A model generated the notes under the pieces. It was not told the DNA's origin. It made no database searches and was given only the letters and a program-made list of their open reading frames with translations. A stretch of 64,000 bases of DNA from an uncultured Verrucomicrobiae bacterium (GTDB lineage: Bacteria; Verrucomicrobiota; Verrucomicrobiia; Chthoniobacterales; Terrimicrobiaceae): NCBI GenBank assembly GCA_963706955.1, contig CAVPOC010000009.1, positions 32,001 to 96,000 on the forward strand, given 5' to 3'. Position 1 is the stretch's first letter. Each line of letters begins with the position of its first letter. A program made the position numbers and the translations under genes. This document shows positions 6,207 through 32,697 of this stretch, one piece after another.

Positions 6207-8976
6207 TCAACCTGCTTGGATGGCAGCTTCGGTGACGGCATCGGCACAGCGCACGCAAAGCGTGGGGTGAGCCGGATTGCCACCCACGTCCTCGCGAAAC
6301 CTCCAGCATCTGTCGCAGCGGGGGTTCGGCGTTCGTGATACTTCGATCGAAAAGCTTTCAGATTCCTCGAGATCGAGATCGCTGATCACAAAGATCTCAT
6401 CCAACTCCTCGCGATACTCACGGACGACTTCGACTTCATCTTTGGCTGCAACTCGCACGACCACCCTCGCCTCGAGCGTGCCGCCGATTGTTTTGGCTTT
6501 CTGCGCGGCTTCAACGGCTTGCATGATTTTCGCGCGCAGGCCGAGCAGCGTATCAAATTTACGAATCGACTCGAGATCCACCCATTCCGCATCCACTTCC
6601 GGGAAAAGTTGAATATGGACAGACTCCTCAGGACGGAAATATCCCCACGCTTCCTCACTGGTGAAGGCCAATACCGGCGCCAGCAGCCGACAGAGGGCAT
6701 CAAAGACCGTCGCCATGGCAAACTGGGTCGCACGGCGGCGCGGCGAATCGGAAGCGTCGCAATAGAGTCGGTCCTTGGTGATGTCCACGTAAAGACTGCT
6801 CAAATCCACTGCGCAAAACTGGTTTATCGAGTGATAGACGCGGTGAAACTCAAGGCTCTCATAAGCGTCACGGCAGTTGCCGATCAAGGTTTGCAACTTT
6901 GCTAAAACCCATCTGTCGACCAATGTTGTCTGCTCGCGCGGCAGTTCACGGGTGCCGTCGAAATCGTGGAGGTTCGCCAGCAAGATACGCAGCGTATTTC
7001 GAATACGCCGATAAGCGTCCGAGAGGCGGGTAAAGATCTCCTCGGAAAAGGGGACATCGTCGGTAAAGTTCACGCTGCTCACCCATAACCGCAGCAGATC
7101 GGCGCCATACTTGTTAACGTAGTGATCCGCTTCTGAAGGCTTCTGATAAGCGCCCTGAGTGGACTTGGAGATCTTTTTCTTGGTGTCGACGTCGACCACG
7201 AATCCATGCGTCAATACCGAACGGTATGGCGCCACTCCGTTCAGGGCGATGGAAGTCATCAGCGAGCTTTGAAACCAGCCACGATGCTGGTCAGTCGCCT
7301 CGAGGTACAAATCTGCCGGAAATTCGAGCTCTTCGCGCCTCCGCAGAACCGCCTGATGGCTTACTCCGGAGTCGATCCAGACGTCCAGCGTGTCGTTTCG
7401 GCGTGTCCACCGGGACTGTCCATAGCCGATCTCATTGAGGATCTCCGAGTCAGTCAGATCAAACCAGACGTTTGTTCCCCTCACCTCGACCAGATCCGCG
7501 ACACGGCGCGCAAGCTCAGGAGCGAGCGGGTTTTCAAGGATCGGTCGGTTATCTTGATCATAAAAGATTGGAAGCGGCACTCCCCACGATCTCTGGCGCG
7601 AGATGCACCAGTCGGGGCGCGATTCGACGGTCCCGTAAATGCGATTTCGGCCCCAATGCGGCAGCCAGGTTACTTCCTCGATCGCCCGGAGAGCGTCGTG
7701 GCGGAGAAGGTCGACGCGGATGAAAAATTGCTCCACTGCGCGAAAGACCACCGGCGTCTTCGAGCGCCAGCAATGTGGATATGAGTGCCGGTAAACCTGC
7801 TCACCAAGAAGCATGTTCCGCGACCGCAGGTGTTCGACGACCTCCTTGTTTGCATCGAAGACATACTTGCCAGCCCAGATAGGCACGCCCACCTCTTCGG
7901 TGAAGCGTCCATGGTCATCCACGGGCGAGAGAATGGGCAAACCGTTTTCAACGCCGGCAACATAGTCGTCCGCTCCGTGGCCGGGCGCAATGTGGACCTG
8001 GCCGGTGCCGGCGTCGAGGGTGACGAAATTTGCCAGGATTACCCGCGATCGTCGATCGAGAAAGGGATGCTGTGTCTCGGTGTTTTTCAGCTCGGTCCCG
8101 AAAAAGGATTGCGATACCTGATCATTGGCGAGCTTCCATTTCGTGGCCTGTTCAAAGGCTGGGACGAGCTCCCTTGCGAGGACGAAGAGTTCCTCCTCCC
8201 CGGTCTCTTCATTTCGAAACCGTCGAAGCCAGTAGGTATAATCGGCTTTGATCGCGATGGCGACGTTTGCTGGCAGCGTCCACGGTGTCGTTGTCCAGAT
8301 TACCATGCTCGCCTTTGCTGCGAGCGGGCCGCTGACGATGGGAAACTTGACAAGGATCGCAGGATCTTCGCGCTCGGCATATTCGACCTCTGCCTCAGCG
8401 AGGGCCGTTTGGGCGCCGGTACTCCAGTAGACCGGCTTCTTCGATTGATAGACGAGTCCTTTCTCCAAGAACCTGGCAAAGCAACGGATGATATCTGCTT
8501 CGGTACTGCGGCGAGAGGGTGAGATAAGGATTCTCCCAATCTCCCAAGACCCCTAAGCGTCGGAATTGCCGCTTCTGAACGTCGACAAATTTTCGCGCGT
8601 AAGCCTCTGACCGCCTCCGGACTTCTGCGGGAGCAAGGCCCTTCGATTCCTTGACCACCTTGAATTCGATCGGTAGCCCATGGCAATCCCATCCTGGAAC
8701 GTAGGGAGCCCGGTAGCCAGCCATGGTGCGCGACTTCACAACGAAGTCTTTTAAGATCTTGTTCAGGGCAGTGCCCATATGCACGTCGCCGTTGGCGAAG
8801 GGCGGCCCGTCGTGAAGAATATATGCTCTCGCCGCCTCCTTCCGCTCTTCCTGGATGCGTTCGTAGAGCTTCTCACGCTCCCATCGGGCGAGAATTTCCG
8901 GCTCTCGTGCTGTCAATCCCGCTTTCATTGGAAACTCCGTCTTGGGAAGGTTTAGTGTGTCCTTGTAACTGCTCAT
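6207..8976 (-). CDS. ileS: Isoleucine-tRNA ligase, split by a +1 frameshift at about 8502
   Basis: N-terminal part: [15 protein letters not shown] (HIGH-like), [12 protein letters not shown]-terminal part: [24 protein letters not shown]...CVRC zinc finger. Removing one C in TAC-C-GAA restores [11 protein letters not shown]. Confidence 0.96.
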
Positions 8977-9123: not shown

Positions 9124-10581
9124 ATGAGGTGCTTTCACGGTTCATGCACGGCGGTAGTTATGTTTGTATTGGCCGCGCCGTGCCTTTTCGCTGAAAGCCA
9201 CTCCGCCGCCGATAGTGCAAATCAAAAGGCAGAGCCTCACCAGAAGTTGAGCGGTAATGGCTTTGACTACGCCGAAGTTCTCCAAAAGGCTCTCTTCTTT
9301 TTTGACGCGCAACGCTCGGGGGACCTGCCGAACGGCTTTCGCGTTGCCTGGCGTGGCGACTCGGCCCTCGATGACGGCAAAGATGCGGGTATTGATCTCA
9401 CGGGCGGATATTACGATGCGGGAGATCACATGAAGTTCGCCCTTCCGCTGGCCAGTACGCTCACTCTGCTGGCCTGGAGTGGCATCGAATATCGCGGAGG
9501 ATATGAGCGCGCGAGTCAATGGTCCCAACTACTGGATACGATTCGCTGGGGCGCCGACTGGATCCTGAAGGCTCATGCGGCAAAGGACGTGTTTTATGCG
9601 CAGGTAGGGGATCCCCGGTCGGATCACTCGTTCTGGGGGCCACCCGAATCCATGAAGATGAACCGTCCGACATTCAAGATTGACGCGGAGAATCCGGGCT
9701 CGGAGATCGCCGGAGAAGCTGCAGCCGCGCTCGCCGCCGCTGGCATTCTCTTCCGAGCAGAGGATCCATCCTATTCGGAGAATCTTCTCAGCCACGCGAA
9801 AGCGCTATTTCAATTCGCCGATCTTTACCGCGGCAACTACATCGATGCTATTCCTGCTGCGTGGGGTTATTATCATTCGTCCGGTTATCACGACGAATTG
9901 GTTTGGAGCGCGCTCTGGCTTTATAAAGCCACCGGCAACGTCGAATATCTGCGAAAGGCGGAATCGATCTACCGCGAGTATTTCGCGAATGCTTCTATGC
10001 GCTGGACCCATTCCTGGGACGACAAACGCTACGGGGCGGCGATCCTTCTCGCCCAACTGACAAAATCCGAGGTCTACAGAGAGGCGGTTCGGCGCTGGTT
10101 GGATTACTGGACCTCTGGCGATCAAGGAGAGCGTATCGAATACACGCCTGGTGGGTTGGCGTGGCTGGACTCCTGGGCCTCACTGCGCTATGCAGCCACC
10201 ACCGCTTTCCTCGCCTTCGTCTATGCCGACACCGTCGAGGATGTTGGCGGTCGTTATCGCGATTTTGCCCGCCACCAAATCGACTACATATTGGGAGCGA
10301 ACCCCCAGGGGCGCAGCTACGTGGTCGGATTTGGTAACAACCCCCCACGCAACCCACACCATCGCGCTTCCCACGGATCTCTTAAACACACGATCGAAGA
10401 CCCGCCCATTAATCGGCACATTCTCTATGGCGCGCTTGTTGGAGGTCCTACCTCCGCCGATGATTCATCCTATGTCGATGACCGGACGAATTTCCAGGCC
10501 AACGAGGTGGCTTTGGACTACAATGCAGGCTTCACCGGTGCCGTGGCGAGGATGGTCCTGCACATCGGTCCTCTTCAGTGA
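9124..10581 (+). CDS. Secreted glycoside hydrolase family 9 endoglucanase (catalytic domain only)
   Basis: Signal peptide; AQRSG, DLTGGYYDAGDHMKF, PHHR, LYGALVGGP, NEVALDYNAG; catalytic Asp/Asp/Glu present; no CBM. Confidence 0.95.
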   Translation: MRCFHGSCTAVVMFVLAAPCLFAESHSAADSANQKAEPHQKLSGNGFDYAEVLQKALFFFDAQRSGDLPNGFRVAWRGDSALDDGKDAGIDLTGGYYDAGDHMKFALPLASTLTLLAWSGIEYRGGYERASQWSQLLDTIRWGADWILKAHAAKDVFYAQVGDPRSDHSFWGPPESMKMNRPTFKIDAENPGSEIAGEAAAALAAAGILFRAEDPSYSENLLSHAKALFQFADLYRGNYIDAIPAAWGYYHSSGYHDELVWSALWLYKATGNVEYLRKAESIYREYFANASMRWTHSWDDKRYGAAILLAQLTKSEVYREAVRRWLDYWTSGDQGERIEYTPGGLAWLDSWASLRYAATTAFLAFVYADTVEDVGGRYRDFARHQIDYILGANPQGRSYVVGFGNNPPRNPHHRASHGSLKHTIEDPPINRHILYGALVGGPTSADDSSYVDDRTNFQANEVALDYNAGFTGAVARMVLHIGPLQ

Positions 10582-12587
10582 CCCTTGCCTGCGACAAGCC
10601 CACGAACTCGAACCGCCTCATCCGATACGAAGGGCGGGTGTGGCGCGATCAGGCGCCACAGAATCCGCATGAGCGGATCGCGATCAGCGACAAAGTGAGC
10701 GGCATTTCGATAAATCGCACCGATCAAGCGCTTGCGACTGGAACCCTCAAAGAAGCGGAACCTCGCCCGGAGCAAACCCGACGATACTTCTTGCGAGAAA
10801 TGCGCAGCAATCCGGCCAACACCTGCAAGGTCGATCAGACAGCTTTGACCATCTAAACCATCGGGTTTGCCCTCTCGAATGCTCAGCGAAATTTGCGAAA
10901 GGCTCACCAAAGTGGCAGTCCCTTGCCAAGTTTTTCCACTCGAATGCACAACGGCGGGCCAATCAACCAAGATCGTCTCCTCGTCGGGTTGACGCGGCCG
11001 CTCGATGCTGGCTTGGACGATTAGCGTCAGCGTGATCAGTTGCCAGGCCGTCCAGAAGAGGAGCGCTACTGCAAAGAACGGGGCGCGATCCGGCGACGAG
11101 CCATTTGTCATTGTGAAAACGATGCCACTGATGATCAATGTGATCAGAAACGCTGCTGGCCCGAGAGTTCGCCAGCAAACCTGCCGGCCCTCGCTTGTCA
11201 CGCTGGAGGTGATCTTCCAGCCAATCTCGCGGCGGGGTGTCGCCAATGTCGCCAGTGCGGTTGGGAGCGCGATGAATGCATTGAAGAGATTGTGTGCCTG
11301 TTTCAGAACCGGGAGAACCACGCCGCGTTGAAACCACCAGTCTGCAGCGCAGATGGTGGCAAAATACGTTATCGGCAGGAGCAAGGCATCCAATGGCGGC
11401 ACTGGTGGAAAGAGGCTGATGGAAAACCATGCGAGAGCTGTAGCGATCGAGTAAAAGACCTGAGCGAGATTCCCGGTGACCCAGTGTGGTGAAAAGAATG
11501 CCCATCGCTGGAATAACGATAACCCGGCGCAGCGGAGCGGTCCTCGCTTGAGGAACAGCATTCGCAGATTTCCATGGCACCATCGCGTCCGCTGCTTGAT
11601 CAGAGCACTTAGATTTGCCGGAGCGACGCCGATCGACAGTGGCTCAGGTAAACAAATTGTCCGCCAGCCGCTCGCAAGTAGAATGACTGAAGTGAAGATG
11701 TCCTCTGTGTCGCATTCCTCAGGAAACCCACCGATACTCTCCAGCGCAGCCCGGCGAATGACAGCGCTCGTCCCGCAGAAGAAGCTCACGCCCCAAGCGT
11801 CGCGGCTGGCTTGGTCGTCATAGTAGAACGCCTGAGCCTCATCCGACATCGCGCGCTCGAGACCCAGATTCCAGCGGAATGGCTCGCAATTAAGATACGA
11901 CTGCGGAGTCTGAACGATGGCGATCTTCGGGTCGGTAAAAAATCCAATCGTCCGGATGAGTATTCCCGGCATCGGGACGAAGTCGGCGTCCAATTGCAGA
12001 ATGAAGGGGGCAGTTGTGTGACGCAATCCGTTGTTTTGATTGCCCGCCTTCTTGCCGCGATTGTCCGCACGTGTGATGTAGCCGATGCCTTCTTGATTGC
12101 AGCGCTCTTTAAGCCAGTGCCTTCGAGTATCATCCAGCACCCAAAGATTCTTATTCGGATAGTCAATGTTCTTCGCTCCTTCGATCGTCTTCTCGAGGAT
12201 CTTCCAATCTTCGCTATAGGTGGTGATCATGATGTCGACCCAGGGAAGAGTGGTCGGGTCCGCTGAACGCAACTCCGCTTCCATGCGATTGGCTTGCGAG
12301 GACCGTTCCGCCTTGCGGCTCTTGATCAGGAGATAAACGCCATGGTCAATACCATTGACCGTCTCCAGAATAAGTAGAAGGACGGAAAGGGCAATGGCGG
12401 CGGGTGCCAACTCGCCGAAGGATAGTACTACGGAATCGAAGCGCCAGATAAGGTATGTGAGCAGAGCGCCGATGCATCCTCCGCTAACGAAGACGCGACA
12501 AATTCCGCGTCGCTCTTTGTTCCCGAAGCACATGCCGGTCACGGCCACACTCGAGACAAGCAGCATGACCGGCAGCCAGATCGTCAT
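10575..12587 (-). CDS. Processive GT2 beta-glucan synthase (cellulose/curdlan/mixed-linkage glucan synthase family)
   Basis: DD, KAGN, DAD, QTP, FFCGT, TED and QRTRW (QxxRW) motifs; multiple TM helices; degenerate PilZ-like C-terminus. Confidence 0.93.
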   Translation of the reverse strand: MTIWLPVMLLVSSVAVTGMCFGNKERRGICRVFVSGGCIGALLTYLIWRFDSVVLSFGELAPAAIALSVLLLILETVNGIDHGVYLLIKSRKAERSSQANRMEAELRSADPTTLPWVDIMITTYSEDWKILEKTIEGAKNIDYPNKNLWVLDDTRRHWLKERCNQEGIGYITRADNRGKKAGNQNNGLRHTTAPFILQLDADFVPMPGILIRTIGFFTDPKIAIVQTPQSYLNCEPFRWNLGLERAMSDEAQAFYYDDQASRDAWGVSFFCGTSAVIRRAALESIGGFPEECDTEDIFTSVILLASGWRTICLPEPLSIGVAPANLSALIKQRTRWCHGNLRMLFLKRGPLRCAGLSLFQRWAFFSPHWVTGNLAQVFYSIATALAWFSISLFPPVPPLDALLLPITYFATICAADWWFQRGVVLPVLKQAHNLFNAFIALPTALATLATPRREIGWKITSSVTSEGRQVCWRTLGPAAFLITLIISGIVFTMTNGSSPDRAPFFAVALLFWTAWQLITLTLIVQASIERPRQPDEETILVDWPAVVHSSGKTWQGTATLVSLSQISLSIREGKPDGLDGQSCLIDLAGVGRIAAHFSQEVSSGLLRARFRFFEGSSRKRLIGAIYRNAAHFVADRDPLMRILWRLIAPHPPFVSDEAVRVRGLVAGKGH

Positions 12588-12599
12588 GGCATCTCGACG

Positions 12600-13850
12600 C
12601 TAGTCGAACAAGATTTGCGCCCTTCGCCCGATTTGCGGCGCGGGACCGTACGCGCGCTGCAGATCCGCCGGCTCAATGGCTACCTTCAAGACAAGTTCAT
12701 CCTTGGCGACAGACCACAAGCGGGCGCCGTTAGCTTGAGCCTGATCCGTCGCTCCCGGCCCCTGAACGAAGACGATCGTTCCTCGAAGAAGCGCCGCACT
12801 CCCGGCAAAGCTTACGCGGACCTCTCCTCCTCGTATGAGTTGCTCGTATTTGCCCTCCGGGAAAGTGGCTTCGACATATGTTCGGGAGAGATCGAGGATT
12901 TCCACCAGCGGGTCCCCCTTGATTACCTCGAAGCCGTTGCTGGCAAACAGAGCGCTCACGACCGCGGCAGATTGCGAATGAACAGTGACCTGCCGCAGTT
13001 GCCCGAGTCGGCTCTTCTCCCGTGCGAGGCGCCCGTTGGCTTCCGCGAGTTCCGCGTCGAGAACTTGCGCGCGGGATCGCAGATGCTGTGACAAGATATC
13101 AATCTCGTCCAGGCGTTGTTGGGTGTAAGGGACGTCCCAGACAGCGTCACCCAGAAAGTATCCCTTTTGCGCAGCTTCTTTGTCGATCAGGCTGCGCGAG
13201 GCCACGCGCGCGGCGGTGCGAGATTCGCTCTCGTCCTCGATAAATGCGCGCCGGTATTCCTCGATGCGAACGGGCGTTTCGACTCCTGCGCGCGCCAGGA
13301 CGGCGAAGCGCTGGAGATCCTGATGGCTCGAGTCTGCGATGATCTGAAGCCTGGCGGCACGATCCATCGTTTCGTCGGTCACCTGTTCATACTTGCGAAT
13401 GTTAATTTCGCGGAGATCGTCCAGACGGGTGGCAAGACGCTCGCGAATGGCTGCGATCTCGTTGCGAATCACCTCCTGTGCAGCCATCTCACGCATCAGT
13501 CGCGACACCTTCGTCGAGAGTTCCGCTTCCAAGCGATCATCGAGCCGGTCGTTGGTGATCGTTCCGATCGCTGCACCCACAGCAAGCGGAGTGCCGATAG
13601 TGAGTCCTTCGACGTGAAAGATGCCCTCGATTGGGGCTCGAACGACGTACTTTGGGGCATTCACGACCCCTTCAAGGCTCGCGTTGCGAAAAGCCTTCAA
13701 GTACAAGAAGAGAAATCCGGTTACGACGAAGGCCAGAAGGATCATGACCCGCACGGATTGCCGCACCAAGCTCCGCGCCGGGCCCGACCGCAACGTCGAA
13801 CCCCATCCCTCGCGAAATTCCGAGGTATGGAGCGTGTTGAGTAGTGCCAT
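12600..13850 (-). CDS. HlyD-family membrane fusion (periplasmic adaptor) protein
   Basis: One N-terminal TM; lipoyl half-motifs VRAPIEG and GFEVIKGDPLVEI flanking a long coiled coil; ends IGRRAQILF; 12 bp upstream of the GT2 gene. Confidence 0.88.
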   Translation of the reverse strand: MALLNTLHTSEFREGWGSTLRSGPARSLVRQSVRVMILLAFVVTGFLFLYLKAFRNASLEGVVNAPKYVVRAPIEGIFHVEGLTIGTPLAVGAAIGTITNDRLDDRLEAELSTKVSRLMREMAAQEVIRNEIAAIRERLATRLDDLREINIRKYEQVTDETMDRAARLQIIADSSHQDLQRFAVLARAGVETPVRIEEYRRAFIEDESESRTAARVASRSLIDKEAAQKGYFLGDAVWDVPYTQQRLDEIDILSQHLRSRAQVLDAELAEANGRLAREKSRLGQLRQVTVHSQSAAVVSALFASNGFEVIKGDPLVEILDLSRTYVEATFPEGKYEQLIRGGEVRVSFAGSAALLRGTIVFVQGPGATDQAQANGARLWSVAKDELVLKVAIEPADLQRAYGPAPQIGRRAQILFD

Positions 13851-14181: not shown

Positions 14182-14892
14182 TTAGGAATCCTTCGGCGAA
14201 GGCTTCGCCGGGGCATCTCCCGGCGGGGACAGAGTCTTCCGTGAGCCAGGGGAGGATGCGCGGGTTCCCGTATCCTGCAGTTGCATCACAAAGCCCGACA
14301 GCTTCGTGCCGTTGGGTCTAAAGACTTCGGCGACCTGGCGGACTATAGCAAATGGAACGGAATCGCTCAGCCAGAGCGTCCCTTTTTCGACAGTCGGAGC
14401 TGCTCCGAGCGTCCGGAGCGAATAGGTATAGCGGTCGCAGGTGCGGCCGTCGATTTTTTCGGTCTTCTCGAAAGTTACTGCTCCGCGAAAGTCTTTTTCA
14501 GCCTGTCGAATTTGATGCAGAGTTGCGTCGTCCACCTGCATATCCATTCCGCTGGATGACATCGACATCTTCTCGATAAACTTTCCAAAGCTCAGCCCGT
14601 CGCGCTCAAGATTGAAGTCGCGTGACATGATGTAGGTGTTCTTCGATTTGGAATTCTTGCTCGGTTCGATCGGTGTTGTGACCGTGAGTTCAATCACGAC
14701 CTTACCGTCGACATCCCGTTGTCGCTGATAACGGAATGTGGCCTTGGAGCGGGTGCCCGAAGTAAGGGCGTACTCCGACCATGTACTCGGTCTGGTTGCC
14801 TCGAAGTATGATCTCCGCAACTCGGCAGCCGGCGCCAGTGCCAATGAGCCGAGCAGGGCAACAACCAGTCGCAGAAGAGCACTTCGCTTCAT
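14182..14892 (-). CDS. Hypothetical secreted protein
   Basis: Signal peptide MKRSALLRLVVALLGSLALAPAA; beta-rich pattern (KIDGRTCDRY, LWLSDSVPFAIV) reminiscent of DUF3108/DUF4412-like folds. Confidence 0.65.
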   Translation of the reverse strand: MKRSALLRLVVALLGSLALAPAAELRRSYFEATRPSTWSEYALTSGTRSKATFRYQRQRDVDGKVVIELTVTTPIEPSKNSKSKNTYIMSRDFNLERDGLSFGKFIEKMSMSSSGMDMQVDDATLHQIRQAEKDFRGAVTFEKTEKIDGRTCDRYTYSLRTLGAAPTVEKGTLWLSDSVPFAIVRQVAEVFRPNGTKLSGFVMQLQDTGTRASSPGSRKTLSPPGDAPAKPSPKDS

Positions 14893-14908
14893 TTCCTGAA
14901 CCAGACCA

Positions 14909-15898
14909 TCAATTATCAATAGTCGCTGGTTGAAGACATATATGGTCAAGAGCTAACTCACTCGCCGCGACATCCTCGAGCTCGGTGAGACTTTCCACTC
15001 GCGCCAGTCGGTGACGTAGCCGTGGCGCACCAGGCATGCCGTGGGTATATGCCATCAGCCGGGATCGCATCGCTTTCATGGCGGCCCGTTCATCGCGTCT
15101 CCAGGTAATTTCCTGCCAACAATGGTCGCGCATCAGTTGCCACCTTTCCTCTTGCGTTGGTGCGGTCGGAAGGATCCCCGCTGCCAGCGCAGCTCGAATC
15201 TCAGAAAATATCCACGGAGAGGCCATGGCAGCGCGCCCGATCATCAGGCCCGCAACATCCGCTTCGCTCCTGCGTTTTAAGGCGTCTTGGGCGGTGCCAA
15301 TGTCTCCATTGCCGATGACGGGAACTTTTACCGCTGCGGCAACTGCCGCAATCACCGACCAGTCCGCCCGTCCAGAGTATCCTTGCTCTTTGGTCCTGCC
15401 GTGCACAGCGATGCGGCAGATTCCGCATTGTTCCAGGATCGTCGCTGCCTGGACCGCATTGATCGAGCGGTGATCCCATCCAATACGAATTTTTGCCGTC
15501 ACCGGGACGGGATGAACCGCACAGACCACCGCCTGGGCAATGCGGGCCAGGAGGGGACAATCGCGCAGCAACGCAGATCCACCATTCCTGCAGACCACCT
15601 TGTTCACAGGACATCCAAAATTGAGATCCAAAAAATCGGGCTGCACCCATTCGACGACAGCGCGGGCGGCTTCAGCAAGGTGCTCCGGGTCAGCCCCGAA
15701 TAGCTGAACCCCCAGGGGACGCTCCTCTTCTAGGAACTCGAGATAGCGCCTAGTCCGGGCATTTCGATGCAGGATTCCCTCGGCGGAGACGAATTCCGTG
15801 GTGAGGACATTGGCCCCCCTGGCCTTGCAGATGCGGCGGAAGATGGTGTTGGTCACTCCCGCCATCGGCGCAAGAAACAGTGGAAAGTCGGCGAACAT
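14909..15898 (-). CDS. dusB: tRNA-dihydrouridine synthase B
   Basis: LAPMAGVT, DLNFGCP, KIRIGW, HGRT, GNGDI, MIGRAA. Confidence 0.95.
   Translation of the reverse strand: MFADFPLFLAPMAGVTNTIFRRICKARGANVLTTEFVSAEGILHRNARTRRYLEFLEEERPLGVQLFGADPEHLAEAARAVVEWVQPDFLDLNFGCPVNKVVCRNGGSALLRDCPLLARIAQAVVCAVHPVPVTAKIRIGWDHRSINAVQAATILEQCGICRIAVHGRTKEQGYSGRADWSVIAAVAAAVKVPVIGNGDIGTAQDALKRRSEADVAGLMIGRAAMASPWIFSEIRAALAAGILPTAPTQEERWQLMRDHCWQEITWRRDERAAMKAMRSRLMAYTHGMPGAPRLRHRLARVESLTELEDVAASELALDHICLQPATIDN

Positions 15899-31386: not shown

Positions 31387-32697
<1,311 letters not shown>

Follow-up and report, generated by a model that had tools for sequence, protein, structure and literature searches.

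The closest described relatives of the locus reported here are two bacterial glucan systems that work with an HlyD-type protein and no BcsB. In the BgsBA-TolC system of Sinorhizobium meliloti and Rhizobium etli, the HlyD-type gene lies directly upstream of a glycosyltransferase family 2 (GT2) synthase of about 665 aa whose product has alternating 1,3 and 1,4 links and which needs cyclic di-GMP (c-di-GMP); according to parts of PMC13438883, TolC is required for the product, its role as the direct conduit being unproven. The cyanobacterial XcsA-XcsB-XcsC(-TolC) system combines a synthase, an HlyD protein and an endoglucanase, again with neither BcsB nor BcsC (PMC12430437, in part). Here we describe a related three-gene cassette in a 64,000-nucleotide stretch (the window; positions 32,001 to 96,000 of contig CAVPOC010000009.1, assembly GCA_963706955.1) of an uncultured member of the genus Terrimicrobium (genome G000), composed of an HlyD-type gene, a GT2 synthase gene and a convergent gene for a glycoside hydrolase family 9 (GH9) endoglucanase. 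The synthase has lost the residues of the c-di-GMP switch, no cyclase was found in the genomes that carry it, and the three genes are linked in all four carriers. The export architecture is known; what would be new is that the synthase clade is undescribed, that its switch has been lost naturally and that a GH9 has been co-opted.

The HlyD stop codon and the GT2 start are 12 bp apart, and the GT2 end overlaps the GH9 end by 7 bp. The HlyD product matches R. etli BgsB at E 4e-34, with 27% identity across 375 aa, has one N-terminal membrane helix near residues 31-54 by hydropathy, and would be a BgsB-like periplasmic adaptor. BcsB was not found in the genome, nor any bcs or crd gene among the scanned neighbours, and seven matches to the TolC family (PF02321), in at least three G000 genes, all lie outside the window and are candidate partners. 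A predicted complex of GT2 residues 1-535 with HlyD scored 0.00, which is no answer, and was used neither way. Much of the preliminary description of this DNA agrees with these results: it had proposed a BcsB-independent pair like bgsBA (as borne out by gene order and identities), 12-bp spacing (open reading frame calls and Pfam concur), a GT2 with D,D,D,QxxRW, a convergent GH9 with a 7-bp overlap, an absence of bcsB, bcsC, bcsZ and crd genes, a TolC partner encoded elsewhere and a verrucomicrobial lineage. Two points held in part. The block does lie between ileS and dusB, but a further gene separates HlyD from dusB; and the GH9, described as secreted, is likely exported, judging by a hydrophobic N-terminus in 9/9 orthologues examined, the feature on which that prediction is based. 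In the relatives G017 and G004 the GT2 and GH9 ends are separated by gaps of 27 and 22 bases; as the overlap is not kept there, a meaning for it was rejected.

The catalytic equipment of the synthase is intact. D152-D153, D200-x-D202, T294-E-D296 and Q332-R-T-R-W336, with KAG and QxPH/Q, make up the processive-synthase motif set, and DD, DxD, TED and QxxRW occur in every clade member covering them. The structural model (predicted local distance difference test, pLDDT, 83) matches BcsA structures with TM-scores of 0.83-0.84 (Foldseek) and has a complete membrane channel; pLDDT falls below 50 for residues 456-467, the gating loop. Identity to BgsA is 33% over 608 aa, the best plasmid matches are rhizobial HlyD-GT2 pairs, and the CelA model is matched at E 1.7e-87 with 294 bits against a cut-off of 699.

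With the BgsA and BgsB proteins of S. meliloti and R. etli as reference sequences, a 46-row tree places the cassette synthases in a clade of their own (support 100/100, stem of 1.24 changes per column) within a 14-row clade (100/99) shared with synthases of G011 and G298 and metagenomic proteins, and BgsA stands apart. A 30-row subset, taken without the gating loop and C-terminus, gives the same picture and rejects a joining to BgsA (approximately unbiased test, p-AU 1.2e-6). Signature residues were compared at 27 of the 33 positions in S8 Table of PMC6821405, a source consulted in part (positions 285, 412, 417, 500, 501 and 295 being not safely mapped or uninformative). The synthase (P0002) matches BgsA at 14, CrdS at 11 and BcsA at 8 of them; BgsA controls scored 27/27 and BcsA controls 22-25/27, CrdS having no positive control. 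The trees and the 14/27 score speak against membership of the BgsA subfamily, the 11/27 score against that of CrdS (from the residue table only, outside the tree), and the 8/27 score, the CelA bit score, the missing BcsB and the lack of a PilZ domain against that of BcsA. By sequence, then, the GT2 is an uncharacterised clade on the BgsA/CrdS side of the family. The preliminary description had favoured a beta-glucan synthase of the BgsA/CrdS type, pointing to the segments NLGLE.. and GPLR..; both segments are indeed common to the two BgsA proteins, but subfamily membership finds no support. It had also proposed a phylogeny with CrdS, BgsA and XcsA: in ours BgsA is included and the GT2 falls outside its clade, CrdS entering by residue table and no XcsA or CrdS sequence being in the trees. 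As the features compared place the enzyme in neither the BgsA nor the CrdS subfamily, neither a mixed-linkage nor a curdlan product can be assumed, and product linkage is not readable from sequence.

At the level of single residues the clade is a mosaic. The short loop after DD, F203, Q229, W418 and the seven residues between R361 and W369 in transmembrane helix 3 are shared with BgsA. R156, F203, Q229, D249, P289, G349 and W418 are non-BcsA states shared with CrdS, and T273 and S274 are shared with it too; at positions 309, 412 and 359 of the S8 Table the Lys, His and Trp that mark CrdS are missing, and an HlyD protein takes the place of CrdA/CrdC as partner. Fold, D,D,D,QxxRW and the states Y255, F270, A275 and P323 are those of BcsA (Escherichia coli, Rhodobacter sphaeroides).

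Other synthase families were encountered along the way. In Agrobacterium (pAt) and Azospirillum, plasmid-borne HlyD-GT2 pairs (L076:4525-7695, L078:5751-8941) belong to another clade, neither BgsA nor that of the cassette. Elsewhere in Verrucomicrobiota, L065-L068 (G296, G422, G203, G383) hold BgsA-type synthases with 26/27 signature residues and both RxxxR and DxSxxG, each beside GGDEF, EAL or HD genes and three with an upstream BgsB-like gene, and several Verrucomicrobiae carry canonical bcsA-bcsB operons (L069, L070, L073, L143, L144), with GH8 and bcsC where scanned.

The regulatory residues tell a different story from the catalytic ones. In BcsA, a salt bridge between Arg580 and Glu371 holds the gating loop until c-di-GMP binds, and the gating-loop Lys of FxVTxK coordinates UDP (sections of PMC8892547); an R580A change makes the enzyme constitutive (PMC5567048, in part), and the available part of PMC6821405 calls FxVTxK fully conserved. 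Among 121 homologous proteins and the query, the autoinhibitory Glu is T or A in 12/12 clade members and E in 108/109 others. The gating-loop motif V[TS]xK occurs in 0/11 against 106/109. Of the two PilZ motifs, RxxxR is found in 1/11 (out of register) against 93/109, and [DN]x[SA]xxG in 0/11 against 87/108. PF07238 (PilZ) has no match in the GT2, and in the clade alignment the C-terminal region counts with the stretches of lower conservation. BgsA, in contrast, keeps the Glu latch and FxVTxK; XcsA, which carries a PilZ domain, is under c-di-GMP control. RiGT2 of Romboutsia ilealis is also independent of c-di-GMP but still needs its PilZ barrel (PMC10374906, in part); it is Gram-positive, keeps both PilZ motifs and is likened to the cassette by description only.

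Genome content was compared across 19 genomes of the genus, including the carriers G000, G004, G007 and G017, which are 59-96% complete. No GGDEF gene was found in the four carriers (a profile of our own, run on six frames of G000, gave a best E of 0.36), and those in the genus lie in three non-carriers, G001, G011 and G014; the negative result in the carriers speaks against activation by c-di-GMP of the BgsBA kind. EAL and PilZ, sought in five genomes, were found in G011 alone and in none of the carriers. The sister synthases of G011 and G298 keep PilZ in genomes with GGDEF genes, and in G011 a REC-GGDEF-EAL gene lies directly downstream of the synthase; G298, G020, G024 and G027 have GGDEF and, where scanned, PilZ-bearing synthases. 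Loss of switch residues where no cyclase is found goes beyond the preliminary description. The simplest history would be that the HlyD-GT2 module once travelled with its own cyclase, and that one subclade lost cyclase and switch and gained the GH9.

Several further HlyD-GT2 loci came to light in the same survey. In G014 a locus of the G011 type has collapsed (L126:2854-6431), leaving a remnant in which HlyD and PilZ are fused, with a REC-GGDEF-EAL gene next to it, and in G011 a GH10 gene, not seen at the G298 and G014 loci, lies divergent from the sister-locus HlyD (L023:12459-13622). Four genus genomes hold a second HlyD (340 aa) and GT2 (711 aa) locus (L024:8844-16775 in G013, L025, L026 and L028), ahead of which lie genes for a Ser/Thr kinase and for a GH2_C-like barrel of 600 aa; its GT2 has eroded PilZ motifs, three of the four genomes show no GGDEF, and it is possibly a kinase-controlled synthase. 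G641 carries an HlyD and GT2 pair followed directly by a GH26-like gene (L142:6641-11785), with Asp in place of the Glu latch, eroded PilZ motifs and no GGDEF found in a genome that is 97% complete.

The GH9 appears to be a complete catalytic domain reduced to its core. D98, D101 and E461 are intact and the barrel is full in alignment to Thermobifida fusca Cel9A (540 bits), whose catalytic residues we take to be D55, D58 and E424, in agreement with the alignment. The protein is single-domain, having neither CBM3c, CBM2 nor any Pfam domain other than PF00759. Cassette GH9s form one clade (100/100, 9 rows) nested among multi-module verrucomicrobial cellulases: 12 matches at 72% identity or more are GH9 only (two of them fragments), and 103 of the next 108 carry extra domains (the carbohydrate-binding modules (CBMs) CBM2 and CBM3, Calx-beta or others). 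The aromatic at the position of Cel9A W209, between subsites -3 and -4 (PMC10149213, in part), is deleted in 11/13 cassette rows and Arg in 2/13; most other GH9 rows have Y, F or W there, and at least five share the gap. According to Table 1 of that paper, GH9 domains of this type that have no CBM act about 30-fold more weakly on insoluble cellulose. CBM2 and GH5 were found in none of the carriers G000, G004 and G017, nor in the non-carrier G001, and family member G024 has 7 CBM2 and 14 GH5 matches. Such a profile would suit a soluble or nascent chain, not plant fibre. Family-level GH9s carry lytic polysaccharide monooxygenases (LPMOs) and CBMs, and no synthase match was seen in the seven of their neighbourhoods fetched; LPMO10-CBM2-CBM2-Calx-GH9(-CBM3) fusion cellulases were noted in family members (L092:7662-11588, L093:8456-12430, L095:6757-10119).

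Linkage of the three genes is constant within the genus comparison. GH9 is present in 4/19 genomes, in each beside HlyD-GT2 and tail to tail with GT2; these carriers hold GT2 at 72-96% and HlyD at 70-96% identity, in one gene order (in G007 HlyD falls on a second contig). In 11 of the 12 non-carrier genomes where the slot upstream of ileS was read, it holds an AcrA/AcrB pair, and in G005 other genes; G015, G016 and G018 were unreadable and left out. An AcrA counterpart of this pump sits elsewhere in G000, and none was found at 1e-100 in G004, G007, G016 and G017. HlyD, GT2 and GH9 thus occupy as a unit a slot that otherwise mostly holds AcrAB. G004 groups with the cassette-less G001 and G010 in flanking-gene and rpoB trees (95/97 and 92/94; the rpoB tree is the one without the partial G007 row, whose very long branch distorted a first version), which suggests, without proving it, a second gain or loss of the whole cassette.

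Beyond these genomes the cassette was traced mainly in metagenomes. At least half of the block's words occur in 15 public runs, or, leaving aside four possible sources, in 11 runs from six studies, labelled soil metagenome or metagenome. A scan of named genome contigs matched only three known relatives, and a metagenome scan gave two short loci, one GT2 with GH9 and one HlyD with GT2, each ending at a contig edge. GH9 cluster P0132 and HlyD cluster P0255 have contigs of equal length (12834), a hint of one more possible linked case. In searches of the phylum at 1e-40 (10/401) and the class at 1e-100 (11/401), G298 alone falls in the sister clade, and no GH9 adjoins any GT2 in the neighbourhoods read outside the genus. 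The co-occurrence of GH9 with the pair in relatives, whose absence would have refuted the preliminary description by its own standard, holds in 4/4 genus carriers and was not seen outside one Terrimicrobium subclade. RNA runs gave short contigs on HlyD and GT2 in 3/3, one spanning the GT2/GH9 ends, with the GH9 body uncovered; as contigs cannot show transcription, they were not used as evidence.

All three genes are under purifying selection. The ratio of nonsynonymous to synonymous substitution (dN/dS) between G000 and G017 or G004 is 0.11-0.14 for HlyD, 0.12-0.13 for GT2 (0.09-0.14 overall) and 0.08 for GH9 (0.17 against G007), with 0.03-0.11 for neighbouring genes in the same comparisons. 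In G007, GT2 is missing one nucleotide near codon 373 and another near codon 488, and GH9 has a stop at codon 458, three codons ahead of the catalytic Glu; the flanks (6/6 genes) and the 285 HlyD codons covered are intact, and joint breakage of just these two genes has a chance of 0.036 by gene length.

Coordinates of the cassette, its synthase features and a neighbouring gene in the window
Feature	Position	Strand	Description
HlyD-type gene	12600-13850	-	416 aa; HlyD_3 E 1e-8, HlyD_D23 also matched (Pfam)
GT2 synthase	10575-12587	-	670 aa; GT2 families matched (Pfam); predicted processive beta-glucan synthase with modelled BcsA fold
GH9 endoglucanase	9124-10581	+	485 aa; PF00759 E 4.6e-156 over residues 49-473
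QRTRW (QxxRW) motif	11580-11594	-	GT2 residues 332-336; from sequence; 12/12 clade members
GT2 Ala324	11616-11618	-	Where R. sphaeroides BcsA has its autoinhibitory Glu371; alignment to 4hg6
Altered gating loop	11202-11219	-	WxITxS for FxVTxK, GT2 residues 457-462; alignment
C-terminal linker and PilZ-like barrel	10758-11000	-	Six strands in the GT2 model (539-610), without RxxxR and [DN]x[SA]xxG
Gene without Pfam or NCBIfam family	14182-14949	-	Between HlyD and dusB; conserved

The gene between HlyD and dusB, downstream of the latter, is longer (about 356 aa) in G001, G004, G008 and G010. A weak holin match on a neighbouring gene was rejected. In the window, a single surplus base at position 8502 breaks ileS in two; this base is missing from 4/4 DNA and two RNA runs, and its absence from all four DNA runs marks it as an assembly error. 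The block has a GC content of 55-60%, similar to its flanks, so that base composition gives no sign of recent foreign origin, and a scan for promoters and terminators gave nothing notable, with 2 and 7 sites where 2.2 and 5.0 would be expected.

We consider it about an even chance that the cassette as a whole makes a linear beta-glucan independently of c-di-GMP, exports it through the adaptor and TolC, and trims or clears it by means of the GH9. By analogy with BcsA and BgsA, the GT2 would very probably polymerise UDP-glucose and thread the chain through its own membrane channel. The Glu371-Arg580 latch is gone on both sides, so the gating loop would not be tethered; the barrel would be structural only, and it is quite probable that output is set by expression or substrate and not by c-di-GMP. 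There is comparably good reason to think that the adaptor and TolC would carry the chain out, as proposed for BgsB. With somewhat less assurance, though still on the favourable side, the GH9 would go back to a verrucomicrobial cellulase of several modules, would have shed the binding ones and would cut beta-1,4 runs in the periplasm or at the surface, releasing the chain and clearing mis-routed polymer, the role given for BcsZ, XcsC and KORRIGAN. Such a step calls for beta-1,4 links in succession, so that the polymer would be amorphous cellulose or a mixed-linkage glucan of blocky structure and not curdlan. By the features compared, the cassette would work like BgsBA-TolC and XcsABC and is a member of neither; XcsC, called a BcsZ homologue in the accessible part of PMC8892547, lies inside its operon, and the bcs operons scanned carry GH8, the BcsZ family, whereas the cassette enzyme is a convergent GH9.

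A number of observations weigh against this account. As 16/19 genus genomes are without GGDEF, its absence is not special to carriers, and the incomplete state of the carrier genomes limits what that absence can say. Loss of the UDP-binding gating-loop Lys may lower activity. The tail of BgsA has no PilZ motifs and yet binds c-di-GMP, with weak competition from c-di-AMP (PMC5567048, in part), so that motif loss alone proves nothing. The carriers are all close kin and the linkage may reflect only one or two events; their monophyly is rejected by flanking genes (p-AU 0.027) and not by rpoB (p-AU 0.144). Neither the sister loci of G011 and G298 nor bgsBA of S. meliloti and R. etli has an adjoining GH9 (bgsBA has no glucanase of any kind next to it), and the GH9, being on the opposite strand, is not co-transcribed with HlyD-GT2. 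In DNA run X6 a contig skips 10662-13955 (HlyD and most of GT2), and in RNA run X18 a contig joins 11082 to 13781; both deletions stop short of GH9, which those strains may keep. The L123 GH9 has a dN/dS of 1.54, on very few changes, and frame breaks occur also in the L123 GT2 and in GH9 cluster P0134; these and the G007 breaks could be assembly errors. The range is narrow, one Terrimicrobium subclade, and the cassette is known here from sequence alone.

Several of these points would also fit another arrangement, in which HlyD-GT2 needs no help to export and the GH9 rides along as a passenger: an endoglucanase with a nutritional role, acting in soil on soluble beta-glucans from plants, that entered this slot and was co-inherited there. 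The opposite strand, the few independent events, strain deletions that remove HlyD-GT2 and stop before GH9, and bgsBA and sister loci that need no GH9 all speak for it, as do the soil and rhizosphere metagenomes in which holders occur and an OprB porin gene 4 kb away. Set against them, the 19 genus genomes contain no GH9 without the pair, GT2 and GH9 are broken together in G007, the CBMs are lost with no CBM2 or GH5 in the three carriers searched, and, in the carriers read, OprB belongs to a conserved set of genes around ileS. We regard a passenger GH9 as unlikely, though the most serious of the alternatives.

Less probable by a good margin is a synthase still switched by another signal, its barrel binding c-di-AMP, a protein partner or, as in BgsA, c-di-GMP in a non-PilZ manner. 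The barrel fold is retained in the model, clade members share the reshaped gating loop, BgsA sets the precedent, and a diadenylate cyclase is present in G000, G004 and G017; on the other side, that cyclase is found in the non-carrier G001 as well, no GGDEF was found, both latch residues are gone and the C-terminal region is less conserved. Fractionally weaker still is the idea of a slow or poorly processive enzyme making short beta-glucans or a thin cell-bound coat that the GH9 sizes to oligosaccharides, for which the loss in 11/11 of a UDP-coordinating motif called fully conserved (PMC6821405, in part), the long stem branch and the lost -3/-4 subsite aromatic can be cited, but which sits poorly with the complete channel and BcsA-like fold of the model and with a full-length adaptor under purifying selection, suited to long-chain export.

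Outside subscription papers, the literature gave no match for a Terrimicrobium cellulose synthase or for a bacterial operon of GH9, cellulose synthase and HlyD; among the matches listed for related literature, none names Verrucomicrobia and none is on this case by title. A functional parallel for the hydrolase lies in plants, where KORRIGAN is a membrane-anchored GH9 protein. Its association with CesA likewise links an endoglucanase to a glucan synthase (PMC12430437, in part), and the nesting of the cassette GH9 among bacterial multi-module cellulases makes any likeness convergent.

If the c-di-GMP-independent account set out above is correct, the synthase would correspond in nature to the constitutive BcsA mutants made by engineering, and would show how such an enzyme functions with neither latch, PilZ motifs nor gating-loop lysine. 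The cassette would offer a three-gene, cyclase-free kit for probing polymer export through HlyD-TolC, a conduit as yet unproven. It would also serve as a simple model, in bacteria, of the role of GH9 in glucan synthesis as debated for KORRIGAN, here a presumed editing role. The clade itself, with its mixed signature residues, is a test case for linkage determinants in GT2 synthases. The fullest version is a tentative one and less likely than not: c-di-GMP-free synthases of an undescribed clade, their gating loop rebuilt and their linkage pattern perhaps new, would export through an HlyD-TolC conduit and depend for release on a GH9 co-opted from a degradative cellulase; if true, the Terrimicrobium cassette would be what the CesA-KORRIGAN pair is in plants, arrived at in bacteria by convergence.

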